Source of the DNA: Dehalococcoidia bacterium
GTDB lineage: Bacteria; Chloroflexota; Dehalococcoidia; Bin125
NCBI GenBank assembly: GCA_963663895.2
Contig: CAXXRD010000002.1
Span: 448,001-512,000, forward strand
Length of the DNA: 64,000 bases
Reading direction: 5' to 3'
Part shown: positions 36,656 through 51,145 of the stretch, piece after piece
How the letters are laid out: every line of letters starts with the position of its first letter
Numbering within the stretch: the stretch's first letter is position 1
The notes under the pieces: generated by a model
The model's input: only the letters and a program-made list of their open reading frames with translations
Told to the model about the DNA's origin: nothing
The model's database searches: none
Program-made: the position numbers and the translations under genes

Positions 36656-38059
36656 TTGGCGCTCGTGCTCGCGATCGCGGCCGGGGCAGCCGTGGGCGCA
36701 TGCGGATCGGGCGATGGCGGTGTCGACCCCACTGCCGTACCGCCTGAGAGGCCCGTAGGCAGCAACAGCCTCGACGACAGCCCGCCGGTAACAGACCGCA
36801 GTACCGATGATTCGAGCGACCGCGATGGCGCGGATCCCAGCTCCGCGGCCGCGTCCCCGCAGAGCGGCGCAGACGCGGCCGAGAACGGGCCGGAAATCAT
36901 GGAGGAGACGCCGATTCCCGGCGGATACACATTCGGCTTCATCCTGGGAAGCGACGCCCTGGGATTCGTGCTGGGGATGGAGATGCTGCCGGACGGATCG
37001 GGCAACGTCGTGCTGGTGGCGCGGGAGGGACGGCTGTGGCGGGCCGATGCGGACGGAGCCGTGCACCTGTACGGAGACATCTCGGAGCGTGTGCTGTCCG
37101 GCGGAGAGCAAGGATTGTTGGGGCTGGCATTCTCGCCAACGTTCGCCTCGGACGGGCTGGCGTACTTGCACTACACCGCGCCCGATCCCGCACGCACGGT
37201 CATCTCGCGGTTCCGGACGGCGGACGGCGGGCTCAACGCGGGGTCGGAGGAGATATTGCTGCAGGTCGAGCAGCCGTTCCCGAACCACAATGGAGGGCAG
37301 ATCGCGTTCGGACCCGACGGGCTGCTCTACATCGCTCTGGGCGATGGCGGCGCGGGCGGAGATCCCCTCGGCCACGGGCAAGATCTGGGGACGTTGCTCG
37401 GTGCGGTCCTGCGGATCGACGTGTCGGATCCTGGCGGCTATCGGATCCCGGTCGACAATCCGTTCGTGGGAGTGGAGGGAGCGCGACCGGAGATCTACGC
37501 GTACGGGCTGCGAAATCCCTGGCGGTTCAGCTTCGATTCGGAGACGGGGAAGCTCTGGCTCGCCGATGTGGGGCAGGACGAATGGGAAGAGGTCCATACG
37601 ATCGTGGCGGGCGGAAACTACGGCTGGAACACGCTGGAAGGATTCGCGTGCTTCGCCTCGCCGACGTGCTCCAGCGACGGGCTCCAGCTGCCGCGTGCGG
37701 TCTACGACCATGGACCGCTGGGAGGTTGCTCGATCACGGGCGGCTACGTGTATCGCGGCGCCGCATTGCCCGAGCTGGACGGCTGGTACGTCTACGGCGA
37801 CTTCTGCAGCTCGCGGGTCTGGGCGGTGGACGCGACATCGGACGGTCCGCCAGTGGTGCTGGCGGATGCGCATCCGGCAGGGTCGATCACGTCGTTCGGG
37901 CTGACTCCGGCCGGAGAGGTGGCCGTGCTGACGATGGACGGCGCCACCTTCACGCTGACGCAACTCGAGCGCGCCGCCGGATCCTGGGGATGGCCGGCGC
38001 CCGGCGCGGATCGCGCTAGTAGGTCAGCCCACCGGAGACTTCAAGGGCCTCGCCGGTGA
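36656..38059 (+). CDS. PQQ-dependent sugar dehydrogenase (Gdh-B/sorbosone type) lipoprotein
   Basis: GEQGLLGLAFSP, NHNGGQIAFGPDG, GDGG, YAYGLRNPWRFSFD, GGNYGW; lipobox VGAC. Start uncertain; the 3' end overlaps the convergent SDR gene. Confidence 0.82.
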   Translation: MALVLAIAAGAAVGACGSGDGGVDPTAVPPERPVGSNSLDDSPPVTDRSTDDSSDRDGADPSSAAASPQSGADAAENGPEIMEETPIPGGYTFGFILGSDALGFVLGMEMLPDGSGNVVLVAREGRLWRADADGAVHLYGDISERVLSGGEQGLLGLAFSPTFASDGLAYLHYTAPDPARTVISRFRTADGGLNAGSEEILLQVEQPFPNHNGGQIAFGPDGLLYIALGDGGAGGDPLGHGQDLGTLLGAVLRIDVSDPGGYRIPVDNPFVGVEGARPEIYAYGLRNPWRFSFDSETGKLWLADVGQDEWEEVHTIVAGGNYGWNTLEGFACFASPTCSSDGLQLPRAVYDHGPLGGCSITGGYVYRGAALPELDGWYVYGDFCSSRVWAVDATSDGPPVVLADAHPAGSITSFGLTPAGEVAVLTMDGATFTLTQLERAAGSWGWPAPGADRASRSAHRRLQGPRR

Positions 38060-38801
38060 CGAACTCCGAGAGATCGGAGGCGAGAAAAACGACCATGTTC
38101 GCCACGTCGGTGGGGAGGGCAAAGCGCTTGAGGGCCGTATCGGCGCGGACCCGTTCGAGGAGCTCCTCGCGCGGAATGCCCCAGCTCTGCGAGTACCAAT
38201 CGAGGACGGCGTCGCCCATGCGAGCGTCGACCCAGCCGGGACAGACGGCGTTGACGCGAACGCCGTGCTCCCCGACCTCACGGGCGAGGGACTCGCTGAG
38301 GTTGTTCACCCCGGCCTTGCTGGCGCAGTAGTGGGCGATCTCGGGGTGGCCGCGCAGCCCCCCAACGGAAGAGATGTTGATAATGCTGCCGCGTTTGCGC
38401 TGGGTCATGTGCGTGACAAAGGCGCGGTTGCAGAGGAAGACGCCGGTGAGATTCACGTCGATGGTCCGGCGCCACTGATCGAGGGACATGGTGGCGACGG
38501 GGGAGAAATCGAGGACGGCCGCGGTGCACACGAGCGCGTCGACGCAGCCGAGATCGGCGATCGCGGCGGCGGCGGCGGTGTGCACCGCTGCCTCCGAGGT
38601 GATATCGACCCGGCGGGTGGTGGGGCGGCGGCCGTCGATCACGGCCGCGTCGCGGATCCGATCGAGAGCGGCGGCGGCGTTGTCCCACACCTCGACATCG
38701 GCGCCTTGGCGCAGCAGCTCGCGCACGATGACGGTGCCGATGCTGCCGGCGCTGGTCTCGACGATCTTCTTGCCCGCGAGGAGCGTGCCGTTTTCCGTCA
38801 T
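38016..38801 (-). CDS. Short-chain dehydrogenase/reductase
   Basis: NLTG, NISS, YCASK, VNAVCPG, VTGEAL; degenerate Gly motif TSAGSIG. Confidence 0.9.
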   Translation of the reverse strand: MTENGTLLAGKKIVETSAGSIGTVIVRELLRQGADVEVWDNAAAALDRIRDAAVIDGRRPTTRRVDITSEAAVHTAAAAAIADLGCVDALVCTAAVLDFSPVATMSLDQWRRTIDVNLTGVFLCNRAFVTHMTQRKRGSIINISSVGGLRGHPEIAHYCASKAGVNNLSESLAREVGEHGVRVNAVCPGWVDARMGDAVLDWYSQSWGIPREELLERVRADTALKRFALPTDVANMVVFLASDLSEFVTGEALEVSGGLTY

Positions 38802-38803
38802 GA

Positions 38804-40519
38804 CTAGGTCTCACTGGCGCGGCGCGGCGCCACGCGAAAGTCATCGACGGCGGCGGTCCGGTCGATCACGGCGTCGATGACGGTGGGATGGCCGGAGGCG
38901 AAGGCCGAGCGCAGAGCGTCCGGGATGTCGCGGGCGTCGTCGACGCACAGACCGTCGGCGCCGAAGCCGCGGGCGATGCGCGCATGGTCGACATCGCCGA
39001 ACTCGGAGGCGATCAGCCGGTCCTTCTGGTGCTGGCGGACCATGCCGAGGGAGGAGTCGTTCATGACGAGCCAGACGGCAGGCAGCTCGTACTGCACGGC
39101 CGTGGCGATGGCGTGGACGGAGATCATGAAGCCGCCATCGCCGGTGACGCCGAGCACGGGGCGGCGGGGCTGCGCGACCTTGAGCCCGAGCGCGGCGGGG
39201 AGGGCCCAGCCCATGCCGGCAAGCCCGCCGGGACAGAAAAAGGTCTTGGCTTGCTGCGCTTGGTAGAAATGACACATCCACACGCGGTTGTTGCCGGCGT
39301 CCAGGGCGATGAGCGTCTCGGGATCAACGGATTCCTGGACGAGACGGACGAGGCGCGGCGGCAGCGGGGGAGCGGTGTCGCCGTGGAGCATTGGGTGCTC
39401 GTAGTAGGAGCGCGTGCGCTTGATCGCGGCGAGACGCTCGCTCCGGGCCTGGGTGTCGAGGGGGTCTTCGCGCAGGGTCGCCTCGCAGGCCGCGACGAGC
39501 TGAGCGAGGACGGCTTGCGCATCGCCGATGAGCGCCCGCTCGACGGGGAAGGTCCACCCGGCGTTATGGGGATCAATGTCGACCTGGAGGATCCTCTGAC
39601 GGGCGGGGTCGAAAACGGCGGGCCGCTCGCGCACGGTGTCTTGCGGGGTGAGCTTGGCGCCGACGACGAGGACGACGTCGGCGTCGCCGACCACCGCGTT
39701 GGCAACCTCTTGGCCGAACACGCCGACCATGCCGACGGCGAGGGGGTGGGTCTCGGCGATCGCGCTCTTGCCCTTGTAGGTCGTGGCGACGGCGGCGCCG
39801 AGGAGCTCGGCGAGGCGGCGGAGATCCTGGTGAGCGTCTGCCAGGTGGACGCCGTTGCCGGCGACGATGACCGGGTTCGCCGCGTTGATCAGGAGCTCGG
39901 CGGCAGGGACCACGTCATCCTCGGCGGCGACCGCGGGGGAGCCGGGGAGGTAGCCGGCGGTGGGATGGATGTAGGGGGCGTGCGCTTCGTCCACGTCGTC
40001 GAGGACGGCTTGGCTGCGGAAGACGACGGCGGCGGGACCGGGGCGGCCGCTGGTGGCGTGCTTGATGGCGAGCTGGGTGCCGATGACCGCTTCCTTGGCC
40101 GTGGCGGCCAGGGTGGTGTACTTGGTCATGGCGCGGAAGATGGCGACGATGTCCGGGCTGCCGTGGTCGCCCGTGACGGACTGGTTGGCGGGGTGCTGGG
40201 GCATGAGACCGTCCGACGTATCGGTGATGATCACCATCGGGGAGCCGCTGACGAAGGCCTCCATGACGCCGAAAGCGGCGTTCGAACCGATGAAGGCGCC
40301 CTGGCCCATGATGAGGGCGGGGCGGCCGGCAGCGCGGGCGTAGGCATCCGCCATGATGGAAGCCCCGTGCTCGTGGCGGACGAGGATGGAGGTGACGCGT
40401 TCGCGCTGGTCGTAGAGGCCGTCGAAGATCTCGAGGGTGCCGCCGCCCGGAAGGCCGAAGACGTGCTGAATGCCGGACTCGGCCAGGACGCGCGCGATCA
40501 GCTCTTTCGCCTTCGCCAT
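38804..40519 (-). CDS. ThDP-dependent enzyme (acetolactate synthase large subunit-like)
   Basis: FGLPGG, RHEHGASIMADAY, GRPGPA, GMGWALPAA, GDGGF...MND. Confidence 0.87.
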   Translation of the reverse strand: MAKAKELIARVLAESGIQHVFGLPGGGTLEIFDGLYDQRERVTSILVRHEHGASIMADAYARAAGRPALIMGQGAFIGSNAAFGVMEAFVSGSPMVIITDTSDGLMPQHPANQSVTGDHGSPDIVAIFRAMTKYTTLAATAKEAVIGTQLAIKHATSGRPGPAAVVFRSQAVLDDVDEAHAPYIHPTAGYLPGSPAVAAEDDVVPAAELLINAANPVIVAGNGVHLADAHQDLRRLAELLGAAVATTYKGKSAIAETHPLAVGMVGVFGQEVANAVVGDADVVLVVGAKLTPQDTVRERPAVFDPARQRILQVDIDPHNAGWTFPVERALIGDAQAVLAQLVAACEATLREDPLDTQARSERLAAIKRTRSYYEHPMLHGDTAPPLPPRLVRLVQESVDPETLIALDAGNNRVWMCHFYQAQQAKTFFCPGGLAGMGWALPAALGLKVAQPRRPVLGVTGDGGFMISVHAIATAVQYELPAVWLVMNDSSLGMVRQHQKDRLIASEFGDVDHARIARGFGADGLCVDDARDIPDALRSAFASGHPTVIDAVIDRTAAVDDFRVAPRRASET

Positions 40520-40632
40520 GTGTCTCTCCCTGCGGCGCAGGCCCATGACTACAAGGTGCGCGGCGCTCGTGTCCAGTCACGCAGGCCCTGACGGGGCTTT
40601 CAAGGAGGCGGCGTTTGCCGTATAAGGAGCGC

Positions 40633-41658
40633 ATGCGCGATACCGCCCTAGCCGAGATCGAGAGTTGCTACGCATTGGGGTGGACGGACGGGCTGCCGGT
40701 CGTGCCGCCGACGCCGGAGCGCGTGGAGGCGATGCTGGGGGAGTGGGCGCCGCGGCGGGCAGAGGCGATCGCGACCTTGCTCCCGAGCGGCGGGGTGGCC
40801 ACCGTCGAGAAGATCGCGGCCAATGCGGTGATGGCGGGCTGCCTGCCCGCGTACTTGCCGGTCGTGATCGGCGCGGTGCAAGCCGTGGCGCAGCCCGCCT
40901 TCGGGTTGGAGGCCGTGCTGACAACGGTGCACTCGTGCAGCCCCATGCTGCTGGTCAGCGGACCCGTGGCGGCGGAGCTGGAGATGAACGCGGGCACGGG
41001 GGCGCTCGGCCCGGGCAACCGCGCCAACGCGACGATCGGGCGGGCGCTGCTCTTGGTGATGCGCAACGTGGCGGGCGCGGTGCCGGGCGGGCTCGACCCG
41101 GCGACGCTGGGGCAGCCGGGGAAGTACAGCTTCTGCTACACGGAGCAGACGGCGGACTCGCCCTGGGAGCCGTTCCAGGTCACGAAAGGCTTCGGGGCGG
41201 AAGAGTCGGCGGTGACGGTCTACGGAGCGGACGCCCCGCTCTGCATCGCGGAGATGGGACGGCCGGATCCGGAATCGATCCTGGCGACGATCGTGGAATC
41301 GGCGCTGATCCCGGGGAGCTACAACGCCTTTTTCCGCGAGGATCTGTTCTTGGTGATGTCGCCCAACCACGCGGAGGTGATCGGAGCGGCGGGATGGAGC
41401 CGGGCGGACGTGCAGCAGTACTTCTACGAGCACGCACGCTTGCCGGCCGGGCATCTGCGCCAGCGGGGGTTGTACGGGTTCGCCGAGGTGCCCGACTACG
41501 CCAATGTGGTGATGGAGGCGGATGCCGAGACGCTCGTGCCGGTGATCGCGAGTCCGGAGCGCCTGTGTCTGACGGTGGCGGGCGGCGCCTACGGCGGCTA
41601 TACCGCTATCGTGTTCGGCATGGGAAGCAGCGTCACGCTGCCGCTGCCGGCAGCGTGA
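40633..41658 (+). CDS. Conserved hypothetical protein, partner of UGSC-family selenoprotein
   Basis: GWTDGLPVVPPTPERVEAML, TVEKIAANAVMAGC, NRANATIGRAL, TLGQPGK; this family is recalled as a neighbour of UGSC genes. Confidence 0.75.
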   Translation: MRDTALAEIESCYALGWTDGLPVVPPTPERVEAMLGEWAPRRAEAIATLLPSGGVATVEKIAANAVMAGCLPAYLPVVIGAVQAVAQPAFGLEAVLTTVHSCSPMLLVSGPVAAELEMNAGTGALGPGNRANATIGRALLLVMRNVAGAVPGGLDPATLGQPGKYSFCYTEQTADSPWEPFQVTKGFGAEESAVTVYGADAPLCIAEMGRPDPESILATIVESALIPGSYNAFFREDLFLVMSPNHAEVIGAAGWSRADVQQYFYEHARLPAGHLRQRGLYGFAEVPDYANVVMEADAETLVPVIASPERLCLTVAGGAYGGYTAIVFGMGSSVTLPLPAA

Positions 41659-41674
41659 GGGTTTGGAGGCCGAG

Positions 41675-42226
41675 ATGAACGTCCAGGCGGAGAGTTTCGT
41701 CAGCCCGGTCGCGGATGCCTTCCAGCCGGGGGAGCCGGCCGCCCGACCGGAGTCGCTGGACGATGCACGGGTGGGGCTGGTCGACTGCATGCTCAATCCC
41801 AGCGGCAACTGGGGGCAGGGGATCTTGGACGGGGCCGAGGCGGCGATCCACGATCGCTGGCCGGGCGCGGCCTTCGGGCGAGTGCCGCGTCCGCAGGTCG
41901 TCGCGGAGCCAACGGAAACCTGGGCCCCCGCGATGGCGAAGCAGTATCAGGCCTTGATAATCGCGGCGGGGGACTGAGCGACCTGCTCGTCGCGCAGTGT
42001 GCGCGACGCGGTGGCGGCGGAGAAAAATGGCGTGCCGAGCGTCGTTGTGCTGACCGACGGGTTGTGCTCGATCGCGAGCGAGACAGCGCGCGTGCTGGGA
42101 CGGGAGGGACTACCGATCATCACGGTCGAGACGAGCCTGTTCGGGCTGAACCGCGAGGCGATCGCGCAGGCGGTGGAGCCGCTGGGCTCCCAGATCGCCG
42201 AAGCGCTCACCCGCGGCGAGCCGTAA
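41675..42226 (+). CDS. UGSC-family selenoprotein (Sec101, DUATC)
   Basis: ORFs 41663-41977 and 41999-42226 share a frame across TGA 41975-41977: ALIIAAGD-U-ATCSSRSVRDAVAAEKNGVPSVVV; SECIS-like hairpin follows; GGAGG RBS before ATG 41675. Confidence 0.85.
41988..42008 (+). promoter_or_regulatory. Putative bacterial SECIS element
   Basis: CGUCGCGCA[GUG]UGCGCGACG, a perfect 9-bp stem; loop begins 19 nt after the UGA. Confidence 0.72.
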
Positions 42227-42239
42227 ATCGCGAGCCGCC

Positions 42240-42533
42240 ATGATCGTCGAGATCCAGTGCCTGCCGAACCCGCCCGGCGTGCAGGGCGACAGGTACCGCC
42301 ACGTGGAGGCCGCGATCGCCGAGGTGGAGCGGTCGGGGCTCGTGTACGAGGTGGGCGCGCTGGGGACGACGGTGGAGGGCGATCCGGACGCGGTGTGGCC
42401 GCTCGTGCGCAGCGTGCACGAGGCCTGCTTGCGGTCGGGGGCGGAAGGGCTGGTGACGGTGGTGAAAGTCGAGCAGAGCGCCGGCGAGGAATCGCCGACG
42501 ATCCGCAGTCTCACCGGAAAGTTCCGCAGCTGA
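42240..42533 (+). CDS. Thiamine-binding protein (MTH1187/YkoF family)
   Basis: 97 aa; VEAAIAEVERSGLVYEVGALGTTVEGD, C-terminal LTGKF. Confidence 0.85.
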   Translation: MIVEIQCLPNPPGVQGDRYRHVEAAIAEVERSGLVYEVGALGTTVEGDPDAVWPLVRSVHEACLRSGAEGLVTVVKVEQSAGEESPTIRSLTGKFRS

Positions 42534-42994
42534 TGCAGATGATCGGAAGCCGGACGATGCCCTATCCGCGCGAGCGGGTGTGGGCGGCGCTGCAGGACCC
42601 GGCGATGCTGCGCAAGACGTTGCCGGGCTGCGAGGAGCTGACGCCCAGCGGGGAGAACAGCTTCGACGCCAAGGTGACCATCGGGGTGGCGGCGATCAAA
42701 GGTCGCTACAAGGGCAAGGTGCGGCTCTTCGACCTGGAGCCGCCGCACAAGCTGCGGATGGCGGTGGAGGGGGGAGGCGGTCCGGGCCGGATGCGGGGGG
42801 AGGGAACGGTAGAGCTGGAGAGCGTGACGGAGGGGACCAAGCTCGTGTACGACGGGGAGGCGGCGACGTTCGGGCCGATCGCGCGGGTGGGGCAGCGGCT
42901 GCTGCGGAGCGCCGCGAACAAGCTGCTGGGGGAGTTCTTGAGTCGGCTAGAGCAAGAGCTGGGCCGGGAGGGCGAGAGCGAGAGGGCATCCTAG
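42533..42994 (+). CDS. coxG: CoxG-like SRPBCC protein
   Basis: VWAALQDPAMLRKTLPGCE, GPIARVGQRLL; TGATG overlap with the upstream gene. Confidence 0.85.
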   Translation: MQMIGSRTMPYPRERVWAALQDPAMLRKTLPGCEELTPSGENSFDAKVTIGVAAIKGRYKGKVRLFDLEPPHKLRMAVEGGGGPGRMRGEGTVELESVTEGTKLVYDGEAATFGPIARVGQRLLRSAANKLLGEFLSRLEQELGREGESERAS

Positions 42995-43143
42995 CCGATC
43001 CCGCCCGGCGGCTCGTCGAGGCCAACTCGCGCCGGACCGCGCAGGGCGCGCTCTATAGATCGACCGGAACCTTGCGAAGCGGAGTAGGACCTGAGAGACC
43101 CAGCGAGGTCGTGGAACGCAACCGGCTGCGGCGATCCGGTCGG

Positions 43144-44544
43144 TTACGGCGTGTTGGGGGGCTCGAAGAGGCTGCGGGCAATGGCGATCACCCCGTCCAC
43201 ATTCGCCCCCAGTAGGCTCTTCGTCAGCGCATGCACGGTGTAGCGACTCTCCGTCGCCGGGTCGAAGATCCACACCTTTATAGGAAAAAGAGGGTCGTGT
43301 CCTGGACCGAGGAGACCGTAGATCACCTGTGCCGGCCGCCCGGCGATAACGCGCGTCTCCGTGACCCCCAGATCATCGCCGTTCGGCCGCCAGGCGGCAT
43401 TTCTGGGCCAACCACGTCCCACCGCATGCTCCCCTACGATCCGGAGACCGACCCCCCCAGCTGGCGAACGGTAGGACGCCTTGTAACCGTAGATCGTGGT
43501 CTCCGGGTCCATCTCGGCGCGCAAAAAGGCCCACCCATCGGGCAACGCGGGATCGCGCCAGTACGGATAGGTCCGGGCCGTCGCCAGATCCGTCGTGTAG
43601 TGGGGGTTGTCGCGGTTGTAGGCGGGCGGCGTGCTGCGCACGCGCGCTTCGGTTTCCCCTGTCCAGGTTTCGGGCACGATCTGGAAGGGGCCGTGGCGGA
43701 TGGGCGCGGTCAGGCTGGTCCCCCCCAGATCGGGCAGGACCACCCCCCCCCCAGGTGACACTGACGGCGGTGGTGGCGGTGGCGATCGCGCTGCTGCAGC
43801 CGGTGAAGGCGTAGGTCATCCAGGCGACCCCGAACGCCCGGGTCACGGCCCCCGCCGCGGGCGCCGGAGCGCTCGTCACCGCGTAGCGCACGAAGCAGTC
43901 GGCGGCCTGCTTCCACTCGACCAGGTCACCGGGTTCCACCGCGTCGTAGCGGGCCACCTGGGAGACGCCGTGAGTATCGTGCGTATGGATCAGCAAAGCG
44001 GTGGCCGTGCCGTCGCGCAGCCCTTCGTAGGTGGTGACGGCGGTACTGGTGTCGGCGGGATCTTTGAGGAAGACGTAGTGGCCCGGCTCCGCCACCGCGC
44101 CACTGAGGTCGTAGGTGTCGTAAAGCAAGGGCAGGGCTTCGGCTTCGTCCCTCGCTGTGGATGGATCTCCTAGAGGCGGTTCGCCTGGCGCCGGCGGCGG
44201 TTCAGAGGCGGCGGGCGCGGTTGACGCGGGCTCGTCGGGTGGCAGGGATGCCTCCGGCGCAACGGGCGCGACCGGTTCCGCGGGCGGCTCCGTGATGGGG
44301 GCATCGGCCGTAGGTGTTGGCGGTTCCGGAGTCTCCGCCTGCGGGGCAGGCGTGACCCGTGCGGTTGGCGTGGATGCGTCCGGCTCTGGCGGCTCGGCCG
44401 TCACTGCGGCTTGCGGAGCGGTCTCAGCAGGTGCGGGCGATGGGTCGCCGCCCACTGACCCGCCGCAGGCCGTCAGGCCGCCCGCAGCGCCAGGGCGAGG
44501 CCGGCGGCGAGCAGGAGGGTCGCCCCATGGCGGGCGCGATTCAT
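43144..44544 (-). pseudogene. Frameshifted exported lipoprotein with Pro/Ala-rich linker
   Basis: ATG 44544 gives MNRARHGATLLLAAGLALAL; a shift near 44485 joins GGLTAC (lipobox); a second shift in the G10 run 43743-43752 joins the ORF ending at 43144 (VLPDLGGTSLTAPIRHG...). Confidence 0.65.
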
Positions 44545-44814
44545 GGCATGGTGCCCCCGCTGTCTTATTCAGGTTAACGCCGCCGGCGAGGGCGAGGTTC
44601 CGCACGGTGTCCACGATCGAACAGCGCCGGGCGCGCCGGTGCTTCGTCATGGCCCGATCAGCGGATCGCGGAGCAGCCCGTCAGCCGGAGGATGTGCGAA
44701 AACCCCCTAGAATCCCAGAGAAACTTGGTGCGGGGCCGGGGGCTTGGGACCCCCGACACGTATCGGCTAGTCTGTTGCTCCAATCGAGCACTCCTAGAGC
44801 GAAGGAGGCGCGCT

Positions 44815-45286: not shown

Positions 45287-47635
45287 ATGACGACGCAGGA
45301 ACGACCGCCCAAGCTGATCGGCGAGCCGATCAAGCGCCGGGAGGACCCGCGCTTGATCACGGGACAGGGATCGTACGTCGACGATCTGCAGCCGCTGGGG
45401 ACGCTGCACATGGTGATCGTCCGCAGCCCCTACGCCCACGCGCGGGTAACGGGCATCGACGTGAGCGCCGCGCGCAACGCCCCGGGCGTGGTCGCCGTGC
45501 TGACGCCGGAGGACGTGCAGCAGAGCACCGAGCCGGTCCCCGTGGCGGCGCAGCTCGAGGGGATGCATATGCCCCTGCGCCACGCCTTGACGGGCGAAGA
45601 GGTGAAGTTCGTGGGGGAACCGGTGGTGGCGATCGTGGCGGACGACCGCTACCTGGCCGCGGACGCGGCGGAGCTGGTGGAGGTGGAGTACGAAGAGCTG
45701 CCCGCCGTGATCGACCCCGAGCAGGCGCTGGAGGGCGGACCCCTGGTGCACGGCGATCTGGGGACGAACCTCTGCGTCGTCTCCCCGATCGGCGACGCCG
45801 AAGCCGCGGCGCGCGCGATCGAGGGCGCGGAGGTGGTAATCAAGCAGCGGCTGATGAATCAGCGGCTGATCCCGAATCCGATCGAGCCGCGGGCGGTGCT
45901 CGCGCACTACGAGCCGGGGCCGGGAACGCTGACGGTGTGGTCGTCGACGCAGATCCCGCATCTGCTGAAGACGCTGCTGTCGGCCTGCGCGCGCGTTCCC
46001 GAGCAGCTGGTGCGGGTGGTGGCGCCGGACGTGGGGGGCGGGTTCGGGTGCAAGCTGAACGTCTACCCGGAGGAGATCCTGGCGGCGCTGGCATCGCGAC
46101 GGCTGGAGCGGCCGGTGAAATTCGTGGAGACGCGGCAGGAGAACTACGTCGCGACGATCCACGGGCGGGACCTGATCGGACACCTGGAGCTGGGAGCGAA
46201 GCGCGACGGGACGCTCGTCGGTTACCGGATCAAGGTCATCGCCGACATCGGCGCCTACCAGCATCTCCTGACGGCGGCGATCCCGACGCTCACGGCGCTC
46301 ATGCTCCAGGGCGTGTACAAGATTCCGGCGCTCTCGGGCGAGATTGTCGAGGTGTTCACGAACAAGACGCCCACCGACGCCTACCGCGGCGCGGGGCGTC
46401 CCGAAGCGACCTACTACCTGGAGCGCGGCATGGACCTGCTGGCCGTGGAGCTGGGGGCCGACCCGGTCGAGCTGCGGCGCAAGAACTTCATCGGCGCGGG
46501 GGAGTTTCCCTTCGACACCCAGACCGGGCTGGTCTACGACAGCGGCGACTACGAAGCGGCACTGGACAAAGCGCTGGCGATCGTCGGCTACGACGACTTT
46601 CGCAACGAGCAGGCCCGGCTGCGGGAAGAGGGACGGTATCTGGGCGTGGGCTTCTCGACGTACGTCGAGATCTGCGGCGTGGGACCGTCGTCCGCGCTGC
46701 CGGCGGGCGGCTGGGAGGCGGGGACCGTGCGCGTGGAGCGGACGGGAAAGGTGACCGTCCTGACGGGCGTGTCGCCCCACGGGCAGGGGGAGGAGACGTC
46801 GTTCGCGCAGATCGCGGCCGAGCGGCTGGGGGTCGGGATCGAGGACGTGACCGTGATTCACGGGGATACGGCGCAGGTGTCGGCGGGGATCGGGACGTTC
46901 GGGAGCCGCTCCCTGGCGGTGGGCGGCACGGCGCTGGTGATGTCGTTGGACAAGATCGCGGCCAAAGCGAAGCGTTTCGCCGCGCACGCCATGGAGGTGC
47001 AGGCGGACGACCTGGAGTTCGAAGCGGGGCAGGTCTTCGTGAAGGATGCGCCGGAGAAGGCGATCTCGCTGCCGGAGATCGCGACGCTGGCCTACAACGC
47101 GGTCGATCTGCCGCCCGACACGGAGCCGGGGCTGGAGGCCACGAGCTACTACGAACCGGGGAACTTCACGTTCCCGTTCGGGACGCACGTCGCGGTGGTG
47201 GAGGTGGACACGGACAGCGGATCGATCGACCTGCAGCGGTTCATCAGCGTGGACGACTGCGGCAACATCATCAACCCGCTGATCGTCGAAGGGCAGATCC
47301 ATGGGGGGCTCGCGCAGGGGATTGCGCAGGCGCTGTACGAGGAAGCCGTCTACGACGCGAACGGCCAACTGCTGAGCGGATCGCTGATGGACTACGCCGT
47401 ACCGCGTGCGGATCAGCTGCCGAGCTTCGAGCTGGCGACGACGGTGACCCCCACGGGCGTGAATCCACTGGGCGCCAAGGGCGTGGGGGAAGCGGGCACG
47501 ATCGGGTCGACCCCGGCGATCGTGAACGCGGTGGTGGACGCGCTCTCGCCCTTGGGAGTCCAGCACATCGAGATGATGCTGCGGCCGGAGCGCGTCTTAG
47601 ATGCGATTCAGGCGGCGAAGGGGGGTGTGCGATGA
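45287..47635 (+). CDS. coxL: Molybdopterin-binding large subunit, form II CoxL-like
   Basis: GGGFGCK, active-site loop AYRGAGRPE, PHGQGEET, GAKGVGEAG. Confidence 0.85.
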   Translation: MTTQERPPKLIGEPIKRREDPRLITGQGSYVDDLQPLGTLHMVIVRSPYAHARVTGIDVSAARNAPGVVAVLTPEDVQQSTEPVPVAAQLEGMHMPLRHALTGEEVKFVGEPVVAIVADDRYLAADAAELVEVEYEELPAVIDPEQALEGGPLVHGDLGTNLCVVSPIGDAEAAARAIEGAEVVIKQRLMNQRLIPNPIEPRAVLAHYEPGPGTLTVWSSTQIPHLLKTLLSACARVPEQLVRVVAPDVGGGFGCKLNVYPEEILAALASRRLERPVKFVETRQENYVATIHGRDLIGHLELGAKRDGTLVGYRIKVIADIGAYQHLLTAAIPTLTALMLQGVYKIPALSGEIVEVFTNKTPTDAYRGAGRPEATYYLERGMDLLAVELGADPVELRRKNFIGAGEFPFDTQTGLVYDSGDYEAALDKALAIVGYDDFRNEQARLREEGRYLGVGFSTYVEICGVGPSSALPAGGWEAGTVRVERTGKVTVLTGVSPHGQGEETSFAQIAAERLGVGIEDVTVIHGDTAQVSAGIGTFGSRSLAVGGTALVMSLDKIAAKAKRFAAHAMEVQADDLEFEAGQVFVKDAPEKAISLPEIATLAYNAVDLPPDTEPGLEATSYYEPGNFTFPFGTHVAVVEVDTDSGSIDLQRFISVDDCGNIINPLIVEGQIHGGLAQGIAQALYEEAVYDANGQLLSGSLMDYAVPRADQLPSFELATTVTPTGVNPLGAKGVGEAGTIGSTPAIVNAVVDALSPLGVQHIEMMLRPERVLDAIQAAKGGVR

Positions 47636-51028: not shown

Positions 51029-51044
51029 TGCGGCACAACTGCAT

Positions 51045-51135
51045 AGATTTGCCGGGGTGGTTCGGTCACTGGGACCGAGCCTGAGAATGACACCCGCAAA
51101 CCTGATCCGGGTAATGCCGGCGTAGGGAGCACGCG
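51045..51135 (+). ncRNA. TPP riboswitch (THI element)
   Basis: GGGGTG...CTGAGA-ATG-ACACCCG...ACCTGATCCGGGTAATGCCGGCGTAGGGA consensus, upstream of a NMT1/ThiY gene. Confidence 0.95.
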
Positions 51136-51145
51136 TCACCTCCGC

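Follow-up and report, generated by a model that had tools for sequence, protein, structure and literature searches.

The subject of this study is a pair of adjacent genes, ORF1 and ORF2 (ORF, open reading frame), which head a set of four co-directional genes at 40633-42994 (+) in a stretch of 64,000 nucleotides (nt) from a Dehalococcoidia bacterium (contig CAXXRD010000002.1, positions 448,001 to 512,000); this whole stretch is called the window below. Judged from its sequence, ORF2 is a genuine selenoprotein gene of the UGSC family and represents a divergent U-A-T-C subtype, and ORF1, a conserved protein without a named family, is the regular partner of UGSC in many phyla. UGSC proteins are nearly always accompanied by this one particular unnamed protein of 340 amino acids (aa), to which they can also be fused in either order, and the two are predicted to dock onto each other. 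Together they probably form a two-subunit redox enzyme, perhaps a thiol/selenol reductase. For the window itself the result is more modest: a known selenoprotein family is represented by a divergent member, which stands next to its customary unnamed partner. The features on which the argument turns are the following.

40633-41658 (+): ORF1, ATG start, TGA stop, 341 aa; regular partner of UGSC, without a named family
41675-42226 (+): ORF2, ATG at 41675, TAA at 42224-42226, 183 aa; putative UGSC-family selenoprotein of a divergent GD-U-ATC subfamily
41975-41977 (+): in-frame TGA of ORF2, predicted to be read as selenocysteine (Sec), residue U101, context IIAAGD-U-ATC
41988-42008 (+): hairpin resembling a selenocysteine insertion sequence (SECIS), 9 perfect base pairs (bp), apical loop GUG, beginning 10 nt past the TGA

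Selenocysteine coding in ORF2 and its downstream hairpin

The layout of this region is as the original prediction had described it: the four genes are spaced by 16 nt, 13 nt and then a 1-nt overlap, the second contains the in-frame TGA at 41975-41977 within GD-U-ATC, a 9-bp hairpin follows, and ORF1 carries the motifs WTDGLPVVPPT and NAVMAGC. A TTG at 40615 is an alternative to the ATG start of ORF1. ORF2 matches the UGSC family model of Pfam (PF24696) with 102.2 bits (cut-off 25; E 4.5e-29) over residues 19-179, that is, across the TGA and over profile positions 15-171 of 172. The NCBIfam equivalog model NF041046 scores 78.4 bits, which is under its curated cut-off of 125. The predicted redox site reads U101-A-T-C104, so that Sec followed by x-x-C is present and the namesake U-G-S-C tetrapeptide is replaced. 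ORF2 shares with the published family (PF24696; NF041046; Zhang and Gladyshev, PMC2398784) the position of the Sec, the x-x-C and the register of the hairpin, but it differs in having U-A-T-C rather than U-G-S-C and E-T-S-L-F-G in place of the H-P motif, and its identity to 36 canonical members is 16-29%. The U-A-T-C motif also occurs in four related genomes (G001, G002, G011 and G027), and related Cys fusions carry C-V-T-C.

A protein search with the UGSC protein returned four matches, three of which were 100-aa products ending at the Sec codon, which is why the family was examined at the DNA level. A UGSC profile was built on six-frame translations, with TGA read through, from 80 loci that had been fetched by an ORF1 profile. 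In the column of U101, the 71 domains compared (70 from the loci and that of the window) contain 65 TGA, four TGC and one TCG codon, and one gap at a contig end. Among 41 related genomes, all 75 PF24696 matches hold exactly one TGA. The source genome (5 contigs, 91% complete) encodes selA (497.9 bits), selB (327.5 bits, or 349.3 including a C-terminal piece), selD (359.4 bits; contig C2:564495-565427) and a tRNA-SeC (tca) at C2:665286-665383. The selD gene contains one in-frame TGA, and the selenophosphate synthetase (SelD) of this organism is probably a selenoprotein itself. TGA ends ORF1 and ORF3 as an ordinary stop codon, so that a genome-wide recoding of TGA does not explain ORF2. The PF24696 match and the conservation of the TGA column bear out the proposal in the original prediction that ORF2 encodes a UGSC-family selenoprotein with an unusual U-A-T-C.

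A second pair is present on contig C1 of the source genome (204663-205622 and 205693-206199), where the UGSC gene has the canonical ALAD-U-GSC site with a TGA; the U-A-T-C pair of the window is thus an extra, divergent paralogue.

The hairpin at 41988-42008 reads CGTCGCGCA-GTG-TGCGCGACG and forms nine perfect pairs. By itself it is unremarkable in GC-rich DNA (z = 0.11 for the 81-nt fold and z = -1.3 for the 45-nt fold). Rfam at gathering scores reported no SECIS family at this site, and its description as SECIS-like rests on a structure of our own. Over the 45 nt past the TGA, 63 distinct TGA-bearing homologues gave a mean fold z of -1.58, compared with -0.09 over the 45 nt upstream (paired Wilcoxon p = 2e-9, a value that is overstated because the loci are phylogenetically non-independent). 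When these homologues were aligned without gaps, the nine pairs were formed in 81.8% of cells, as against 16-50% with the 3′ partners slid, and the six inner pairs were formed in 49 to 62 of the 63 sequences. At pair 21-27, 38 homologues have C-G and 22 have G-C, a compensatory pattern, and pair 19-29 shows six double changes, among them the C-G of the window. The covariation score was 0.215 compared with 0.125 in shuffles, and none of 500 shuffles reached it. The loop is nearly always G-U-N, and a 7-bp core of the hairpin is unchanged in the 52%-identical copy of G027, which belongs to the subfamily of the window. These comparative patterns identify the hairpin as a conserved RNA structure across the UGSC family. 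Because the S-[C/W/R]-S-V-[H/R]-D codons after the Sec lie within its stem, the RNA partly shapes the protein motif at this place.

Pairing and fusion of ORF1 with UGSC

The 80 loci hold 88 ORF1 domains and span Chloroflexota, Methylomirabilota, Binatia, Proteobacteria, Actinomycetota, Nitrospinota, Poribacteria and one haloarchaeon. If a pair is counted wherever a same-strand UGSC domain lies no more than 700 nt away, 68 of the 88 ORF1 domains are paired, 44 of them in the order ORF1 to UGSC and 24 in the order UGSC to ORF1, and several loci contain two or three tandem pairs. Eighteen loci lack a tight pair: in one (L051) the UGSC gene lies one gene away, seven are flanked by under 1 kb on one side, and ten are well flanked. 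In genomes more closely related to the source, all 20 loci, one of which is that of the window, have an adjacent UGSC with a TGA. Both families occur in 26 of the 41 related genomes, UGSC only in one (G028), ORF1 only in none and neither in 14. Arrays of the type ORF1-ORF1-UGSC are also found, for example at C1:1348405-1351202 in G010, as read from the coordinates.

Two side observations belong to this survey. Five of the ten well-flanked loci without UGSC are from Poribacteria (L020, L027, L055, L058 and L075) and encode a short form of ORF1 (profile about 4-273); the 6 kb to each side of it contain no UGSC. A gene for DUF6282 (PF19799) adjoins the lone UGSC gene of G028 (L116, 2901-3767 (-)) and directly follows ORF1 of a Cys-type pair in the haloarchaeon Natrialba asiatica (L060, 6994-7824 (+)), and DUF6282 is possibly an alternative or additional partner of UGSC.

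The ORF1 family is large, with no fewer than 7984 clusters at 90% identity, which are named "hypothetical" if they are named, and 7350 representatives at 50% identity, of which 2111 are found at E 1e-30 or better. It has so far stayed outside the curated domain libraries. ORF1 gave no Pfam or NCBIfam match, Pfam gave 0 real matches in 43 aligned homologues, and an ORF1 profile searched against all PDB sequences found nothing at E up to 10, so that its earlier description as a conserved unknown protein holds. In 160 domains of the top representatives, D19, G20, P22, A68-G69-C70, N132, G136-R137 and E171 are near-invariant. Position 70 is Cys in 148 of 155 non-gap domains and position 246 is His in 132 of 154, and C12 is conserved in the close subfamily only.

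The AlphaFold2 model of ORF1 has a predicted local distance difference test (pLDDT) score of 87.0 and a predicted template modelling (pTM) score of 0.88. Foldseek with this model found nothing at E 1e-3 or better, the VIA exhaustive fold search gave a best Z of 4.9, which is the noise level, and the ESM Atlas gave unnamed clusters of this family but no usable named match. The top Foldseek entries were class I fumarate hydratase (E 2.7e-3; template modelling (TM) score about 0.2) and then cyanuric acid hydrolases, and VIA placed an Fe-S serine dehydratase, fumarate hydratase and MmgE/PrpD all at about Z 4. A distant link of ORF1 to the Fe-S hydro-lyases was considered and dropped, given these noise-level scores and the restriction of Cys12 to the close subfamily.

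Fusions join the two families in single chains. A Pfam scan covered the 76 proteins longer than about 400 aa among the top 150 ORF1 representatives. PF24696 was identified in 49 of the 76, in 17 cases whole and N-terminal, in 29 with the post-Sec part only and in three with the pre-Sec part only. The 29 with the post-Sec part only are consistent with Sec-type UGSC-ORF1 fusions in which the gene call starts past the TGA. Two ORF1-UGSC fusions of Cys type (P0066 and P0068) have GD-C-VTC and E-T-S-L-F-G as in the window, P0039 is a UGSC-ORF1 Cys fusion, and P0121 is an ORF1-UGSC protein that ends at the Sec codon. In 20 of the 76 long proteins nothing named was found besides ORF1. Among these are proteins of about 710 aa (P0129, P0140, P0141, P0164, P0182 and P0228) in which the ORF1 profile matches two or three stretches; such tandem ORF1-ORF1 fusions hint at a dimeric working form of ORF1.

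ORF1 is also fused to other redox modules, which replace or supplement UGSC (P0243, P0246, P0232, P0263, P0270, P0198, P0204 and P0191). AhpC-TSA/Redoxin domains occur in five of the 76 proteins, FeThRed_B in two (one of which has a UGSC fragment too) and Pyr_redox_2 in one. The Redoxin domains of P0243 and P0246 were inspected and have CxxC motifs (C-P-T-C and C-A-T-C); the C-A-T-C of P0246 shows the same tetrapeptide pattern as the U-A-T-C of the window. The Pyr_redox_2 domain fused to ORF1 contains C-A-V-C-D, which we take to be the motif of low-molecular-weight thioredoxin reductases. Genes for disulfide redox proteins (thioredoxin-reductase-like Pyr_redox_2, DSBA and thioredoxin) stand beside the pair in five of the 80 loci. 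The redox-domain fusions of ORF1 point to a thiol/selenol redox relay that serves a reductase.

In a survey of the Global Ocean Sampling (GOS) metagenomes, 255 Sec forms placed UGSC among the most numerous selenoproteins of aquatic metagenomes (PMC2398784), and its function was still listed as unknown in reviews of 2022 and 2026 (PMC9312934; PMC13188914). A "UGSC/Unknown_1" fusion from ocean metagenomes, seen in a small number of aquatic organisms, was already mentioned in 2008 (PMC2398784, section 9 and Figure S1A legend). This fusion is of the same kind as those described here, consisting of UGSC and a conserved unknown domain, and Unknown_1 is very likely ORF1. UGSC itself being published and its fusion to an unknown domain having been in print since 2008, "best candidate new system", as the original prediction called the pair, is an overstatement. 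The passages on UGSC in that paper are without the two-gene pairing, the occurrence of both orders, a predicted complex and the alternative redox-domain fusions. A full-text search found no printed account of a regular ORF1–UGSC pairing, on which supplements may bear, and the literature that it returned, one unrelated paper apart, treats UGSC only as a selenoprotein family.

A complex of the two proteins was modelled on the natural Cys fusion P0066, which was split into residues 1-338 and 352-531. The two halves reached an interaction prediction score from aligned errors (ipSAE) of 0.83, and the best of three controls reached 0.00. The mark of 0.83 is reached by 116 of 157 solved complexes and by two of 215 mismatched pairs, a comparison that is only rough because the alignment was our own. 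At least 87% of contacts are shared between runs, with a partner pLDDT of at least 86. Because no similar complex has been solved, this docking prediction is unlikely to reflect a memorised structure. On the side of ORF1 the interface comprises W13, P21-T23, 55-63 and 137-147 (P0066 numbering, equal to that of the window minus 4), which are its most conserved motifs (W, PPT, NAVMAG and GRAL). UGSC contributes a conserved N-terminal L-V-D-P-T-A-E-R peptide (L-x-D-P-T) and residues 449-450 and 453-457, of which 449-450 directly follow Cys448, the equivalent of the Sec. The modelling supports, but does not prove, binding between ORF1 and UGSC. The two-subunit redox unit of the original prediction is in agreement with the co-occurrence of the genes, their adjacency in both orders, the fusions and this predicted complex, and three checks that had been set beforehand (Cys or Sec at the site, selABD in the genome, co-occurrence of the two genes) all came out in its favour.

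The AlphaFold2 model of UGSC (pLDDT 90.4) has five parallel strands alternating with helices, and places the Sec just past strand 3, at the start of helix 4. It matches generic flavodoxin-like or Rossmann-like folds, with WrbA at E 8e-5 in Foldseek (TM 0.38-0.51) and, in the VIA search, Z scores up to 10.8 and 193 chains at Z 8 or more. No thioredoxin-fold chains were among the matches listed, which does not imply that such a fold is excluded. The fold of UGSC is thus predicted to be flavodoxin-like and not visibly thioredoxin-like; the alpha/beta sandwich modelled for ORF2 differs in this respect from the thioredoxin-like fold suggested for UGSC in 2008 (PMC2398784).

Candidate function of the pair

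We consider it somewhat probable, and the best explanation of these results, that the Sec protein ORF2 and its dedicated partner ORF1 form a heterodimer that acts as a thiol/selenol reductase. The UGA of ORF2 would be recoded through the hairpin 10 nt downstream, and ORF1 and UGSC would associate as two chains or, in some organisms, as a single fused one. ORF1 would handle the substrate in a thiol-dependent reductase whose centre is the near-invariant Cys70, located where a helix starts; Arg137, Glu171 and, in most cases, Cys168 are its neighbours in sequence conservation. The flavodoxin-like UGSC protein would contribute its U-x-x-C centre as a built-in selenol/thiol redoxin that either re-reduces ORF1 or acts on a substrate held by it, and UGSC would in turn be recharged by a donor of the thioredoxin reductase or ferredoxin-thioredoxin reductase type. 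Of this scheme, the Sec coding, the pairing, the fusions and the predicted docking are shown, and which way electrons flow and what Cys70 does in catalysis are inferred.

Thiol-dependent reductases that are recycled by a dedicated or fused redoxin include methionine sulfoxide reductase-thioredoxin fusions, peroxiredoxin/AhpF and NTRC. ORF1 resembles them in its conserved Cys and in its fused or adjacent, interchangeable disulfide-reductase modules, namely a CxxC redoxin, a C-A-V-C-D thioredoxin-reductase-like domain and the catalytic domain of ferredoxin-thioredoxin reductase. It differs in that it has no sequence or fold match to them and that the usual redoxin here is a flavodoxin-like Sec protein.

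To survey the neighbourhoods, the 283 ORFs nearest to the pair or to ORF1 in the 80 loci were scanned with Pfam. Recurring neighbours are lineage-bound or catabolic, and include NHL repeats (8 loci), luciferase-like monooxygenases (7), TctC (7), thiolases (5), hydrolases (5) and short-chain dehydrogenases (SDRs; 5); the first three are mostly found within single lineages. Such variable catabolic neighbourhoods, together with the up to six ORF1 paralogues that one genome can hold, suggest a reductase of small molecules that has diversified.

Several observations weigh against a reductase formed by ORF1 and UGSC. No neighbour family occurs in more than eight of the 80 loci, so that nothing points to a substrate, and ORF1 lacks a recognisable fold relative from which a chemistry could be borrowed. 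No UGSC lies within reach of ORF1 in the ten loci that are flanked by 1.9 kb or more on each side, G028 has UGSC beside DUF6282 and no ORF1 was found in it, and the copies of ORF1 equal or exceed those of UGSC (e.g., 6 vs 4). Cys168 of ORF1 is present in only 133 of 156 domains. The modelled complex is that of a fused Cys homologue, 55% identical to ORF1 of the window, and not the pair of the window itself; in this model Cys448 and ORF1 Cys66 (Cys70 in the window) are outside the confident contacts, and only their neighbours 449-450 and 62-63 are inside.

The main rival, which we regard as unlikely, is a composite active site of the Stickland type, in which the Sec of UGSC would be the nucleophile that attacks a substrate in a pocket of ORF1 and thioredoxin-type systems would only recycle the selenosulfide. 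In glycine and proline reductase, the GrdB/PrdB proteins (PF07355) are U-x-x-C selenoprotein subunits that work with a second, substrate-binding subunit; their Sec is the catalytic nucleophile, and the oxidised form is recycled by the thioredoxin system. The likeness to UGSC lies in the combination of a U-x-x-C selenoprotein with a second subunit. The 65 TGA versus four TGC codons at the Sec position are as expected if Sec carries out a chemistry that Cys performs poorly, and residues just past the Sec site lie in the predicted interface, facing the most conserved surface of ORF1. The near-invariant Arg137, Arg130, Glu171 and Asn132 of ORF1 could hold a small anionic substrate, and the neighbours are catabolic genes. 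The grd operons carry trx genes, to which the fusion of ORF1 to thioredoxin-reductase-like domains would be a parallel. However, 37 UGSC domains searched at E up to 5 gave no consistent Pfam match besides PF24696, and GRDB (PF07355) was not hit; ORF1 has no Pfam match and hence no sign of a pyruvoyl proprotein, and the hosts are not obviously amino-acid fermenters. The replacement of UGSC by a CxxC Redoxin in fusions also fits a generic reductant better than a substrate-specific nucleophile.

Alternatively, ORF1 might be a maturation factor, a chaperone or a partner in a sulfur or selenium relay (e.g., of persulfide or perselenide), with UGSC as the functional end-point, which seems quite improbable to us. 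The best-defined contacts of the predicted complex, between the conserved groove of ORF1 and the L-x-D-P-T peptide of UGSC, resemble peptide recognition, and a rhodanese gene lies near ORF1 in one locus (L085). ORF1 nevertheless occurs without UGSC in the ten well-flanked loci and in excess copy number elsewhere, and is fused to Redoxin, FeThRed_B and Pyr_redox_2 modules in proteins lacking UGSC. Stable 1:1 fusions in both orders are likewise more in keeping with a permanent complex than with a helper that acts transiently.

Returning to the reductase formed by ORF1 and UGSC, a broader and more tentative proposal, which we find rather doubtful, is that the two families make up a widespread uncharacterised class of selenium-dependent reductases in aerobic marine and symbiont bacteria, with a catalytic subunit of new fold, a flavodoxin-like selenoredoxin and paralogues that act on different small organic substrates. 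If so, a two-decade-old question on an abundant selenoprotein family of the ocean would become tractable as two-protein biochemistry. The present results offer for this a defined candidate heterodimer, a likely type of electron donor and the target residues U101 and C104 of UGSC and C70 and C168 of ORF1.

Neighbouring genes and the wider window

The genes that flank the pair in the window are listed here.

42240-42533 (+): ORF3, 97 aa, thiamine-binding protein domain of the MTH1187/YkoF type; operon mate only locally
42533-42994 (+): ORF4, ATG at 42533, 153 aa, CoxG/SRPBCC-fold protein; operon mate only locally
38804-40546 (-): acetolactate-synthase-like thiamine pyrophosphate (TPP) enzyme with Pfam TPP_enzyme N, M and C domains, divergent from the pair; context only
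38016-38801 (-): short-chain dehydrogenase (Pfam adh_short_C2, 197.6 bits), downstream of the TPP enzyme; context only

ORF3 passes the Pfam cut-off for PF01910 (56.2 bits vs 24.9) and is under that of TIGR00106 (32 bits vs 54.7), and ORF4 matches PF06240 with 74 bits. For the TPP enzyme all NCBIfam models were under their own cut-offs, so that it fits no specific subfamily.

The original prediction had suggested that the selenoprotein pair might be linked with thiamine handling or with a molybdenum hydroxylase. The corresponding reading, that all four genes form one functional unit, is suggested by their tight spacing and by the same four-gene order in G001 and G002 (same genus) and in G011 (sister genus), in which ORF1 is 72% identical and thus the most distant of the three. 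The divergent TPP enzyme also stands beside the pair in G001 and G011, and a very similar one beside a canonical pair in L022. This order was found nowhere else, and synteny alone explains its retention because these genomes are close kin. When the neighbours of the window were searched against the distant loci, Thiamine_BP and CoxG were found in none of the 80, TPP enzymes and CoxL-like proteins in four each and SDRs in 11. In G027, which belongs to another family and is 52% identical, the U-A-T-C pair adjoins a ChuX/HutX-like gene and a hydrolase gene instead of Thiamine_BP and CoxG. By the standard of conservation that the original prediction itself had set, the link to thiamine and cox genes is refuted and stands only as an operon arrangement of local extent, and a functional unit of four genes is very improbable, the more so as the coxS start lies 1.7 kb beyond them, past opposite-strand ORFs, and the large subunit is under the cut-off for CO dehydrogenase.

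The cox-like genes can be described as follows. The 2Fe-2S subunit, the flavin adenine dinucleotide (FAD) subunit and CoxG of the window have Pfam matches. The gene at 45287-47635 (+) that had been called coxL scores 697.2 bits with the CO dehydrogenase model TIGR02416, compared with a cut-off of 991.15, and its top-scoring model is the alpha subunit of glyceraldehyde dehydrogenase (757.9 bits vs a cut-off of 790). These scores mark it as a molybdenum hydroxylase of uncertain substrate. Between coxG and the gene for the 2Fe-2S subunit, at 43144-44650 (-), lie two overlapping opposite-strand ORFs of 205 and 425 aa, a stretch that the original prediction had named an "insertion". The 425-aa ORF is rich in Pro and Ala, and neither of the two has a Pfam match.

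A scan of 40300-44800 for promoters and terminators gave no promoter-like site and three terminator-like sites, none of them between the four genes and not above the number in shuffles. A TPP riboswitch was identified at 51043-51145 (+) (Rfam RF00059, 58.1 bits vs a gathering score of 54.3) and is the sole Rfam match of the window at gathering scores; it is located 8 kb downstream of the four-gene set and does not adjoin the gene of the thiamine-binding protein. No RNA runs are listed among the public runs that match 40633-42994. DNA nearly identical to this region is present in public runs of 12 studies, several of which are labelled as sponge or coral metagenomes.

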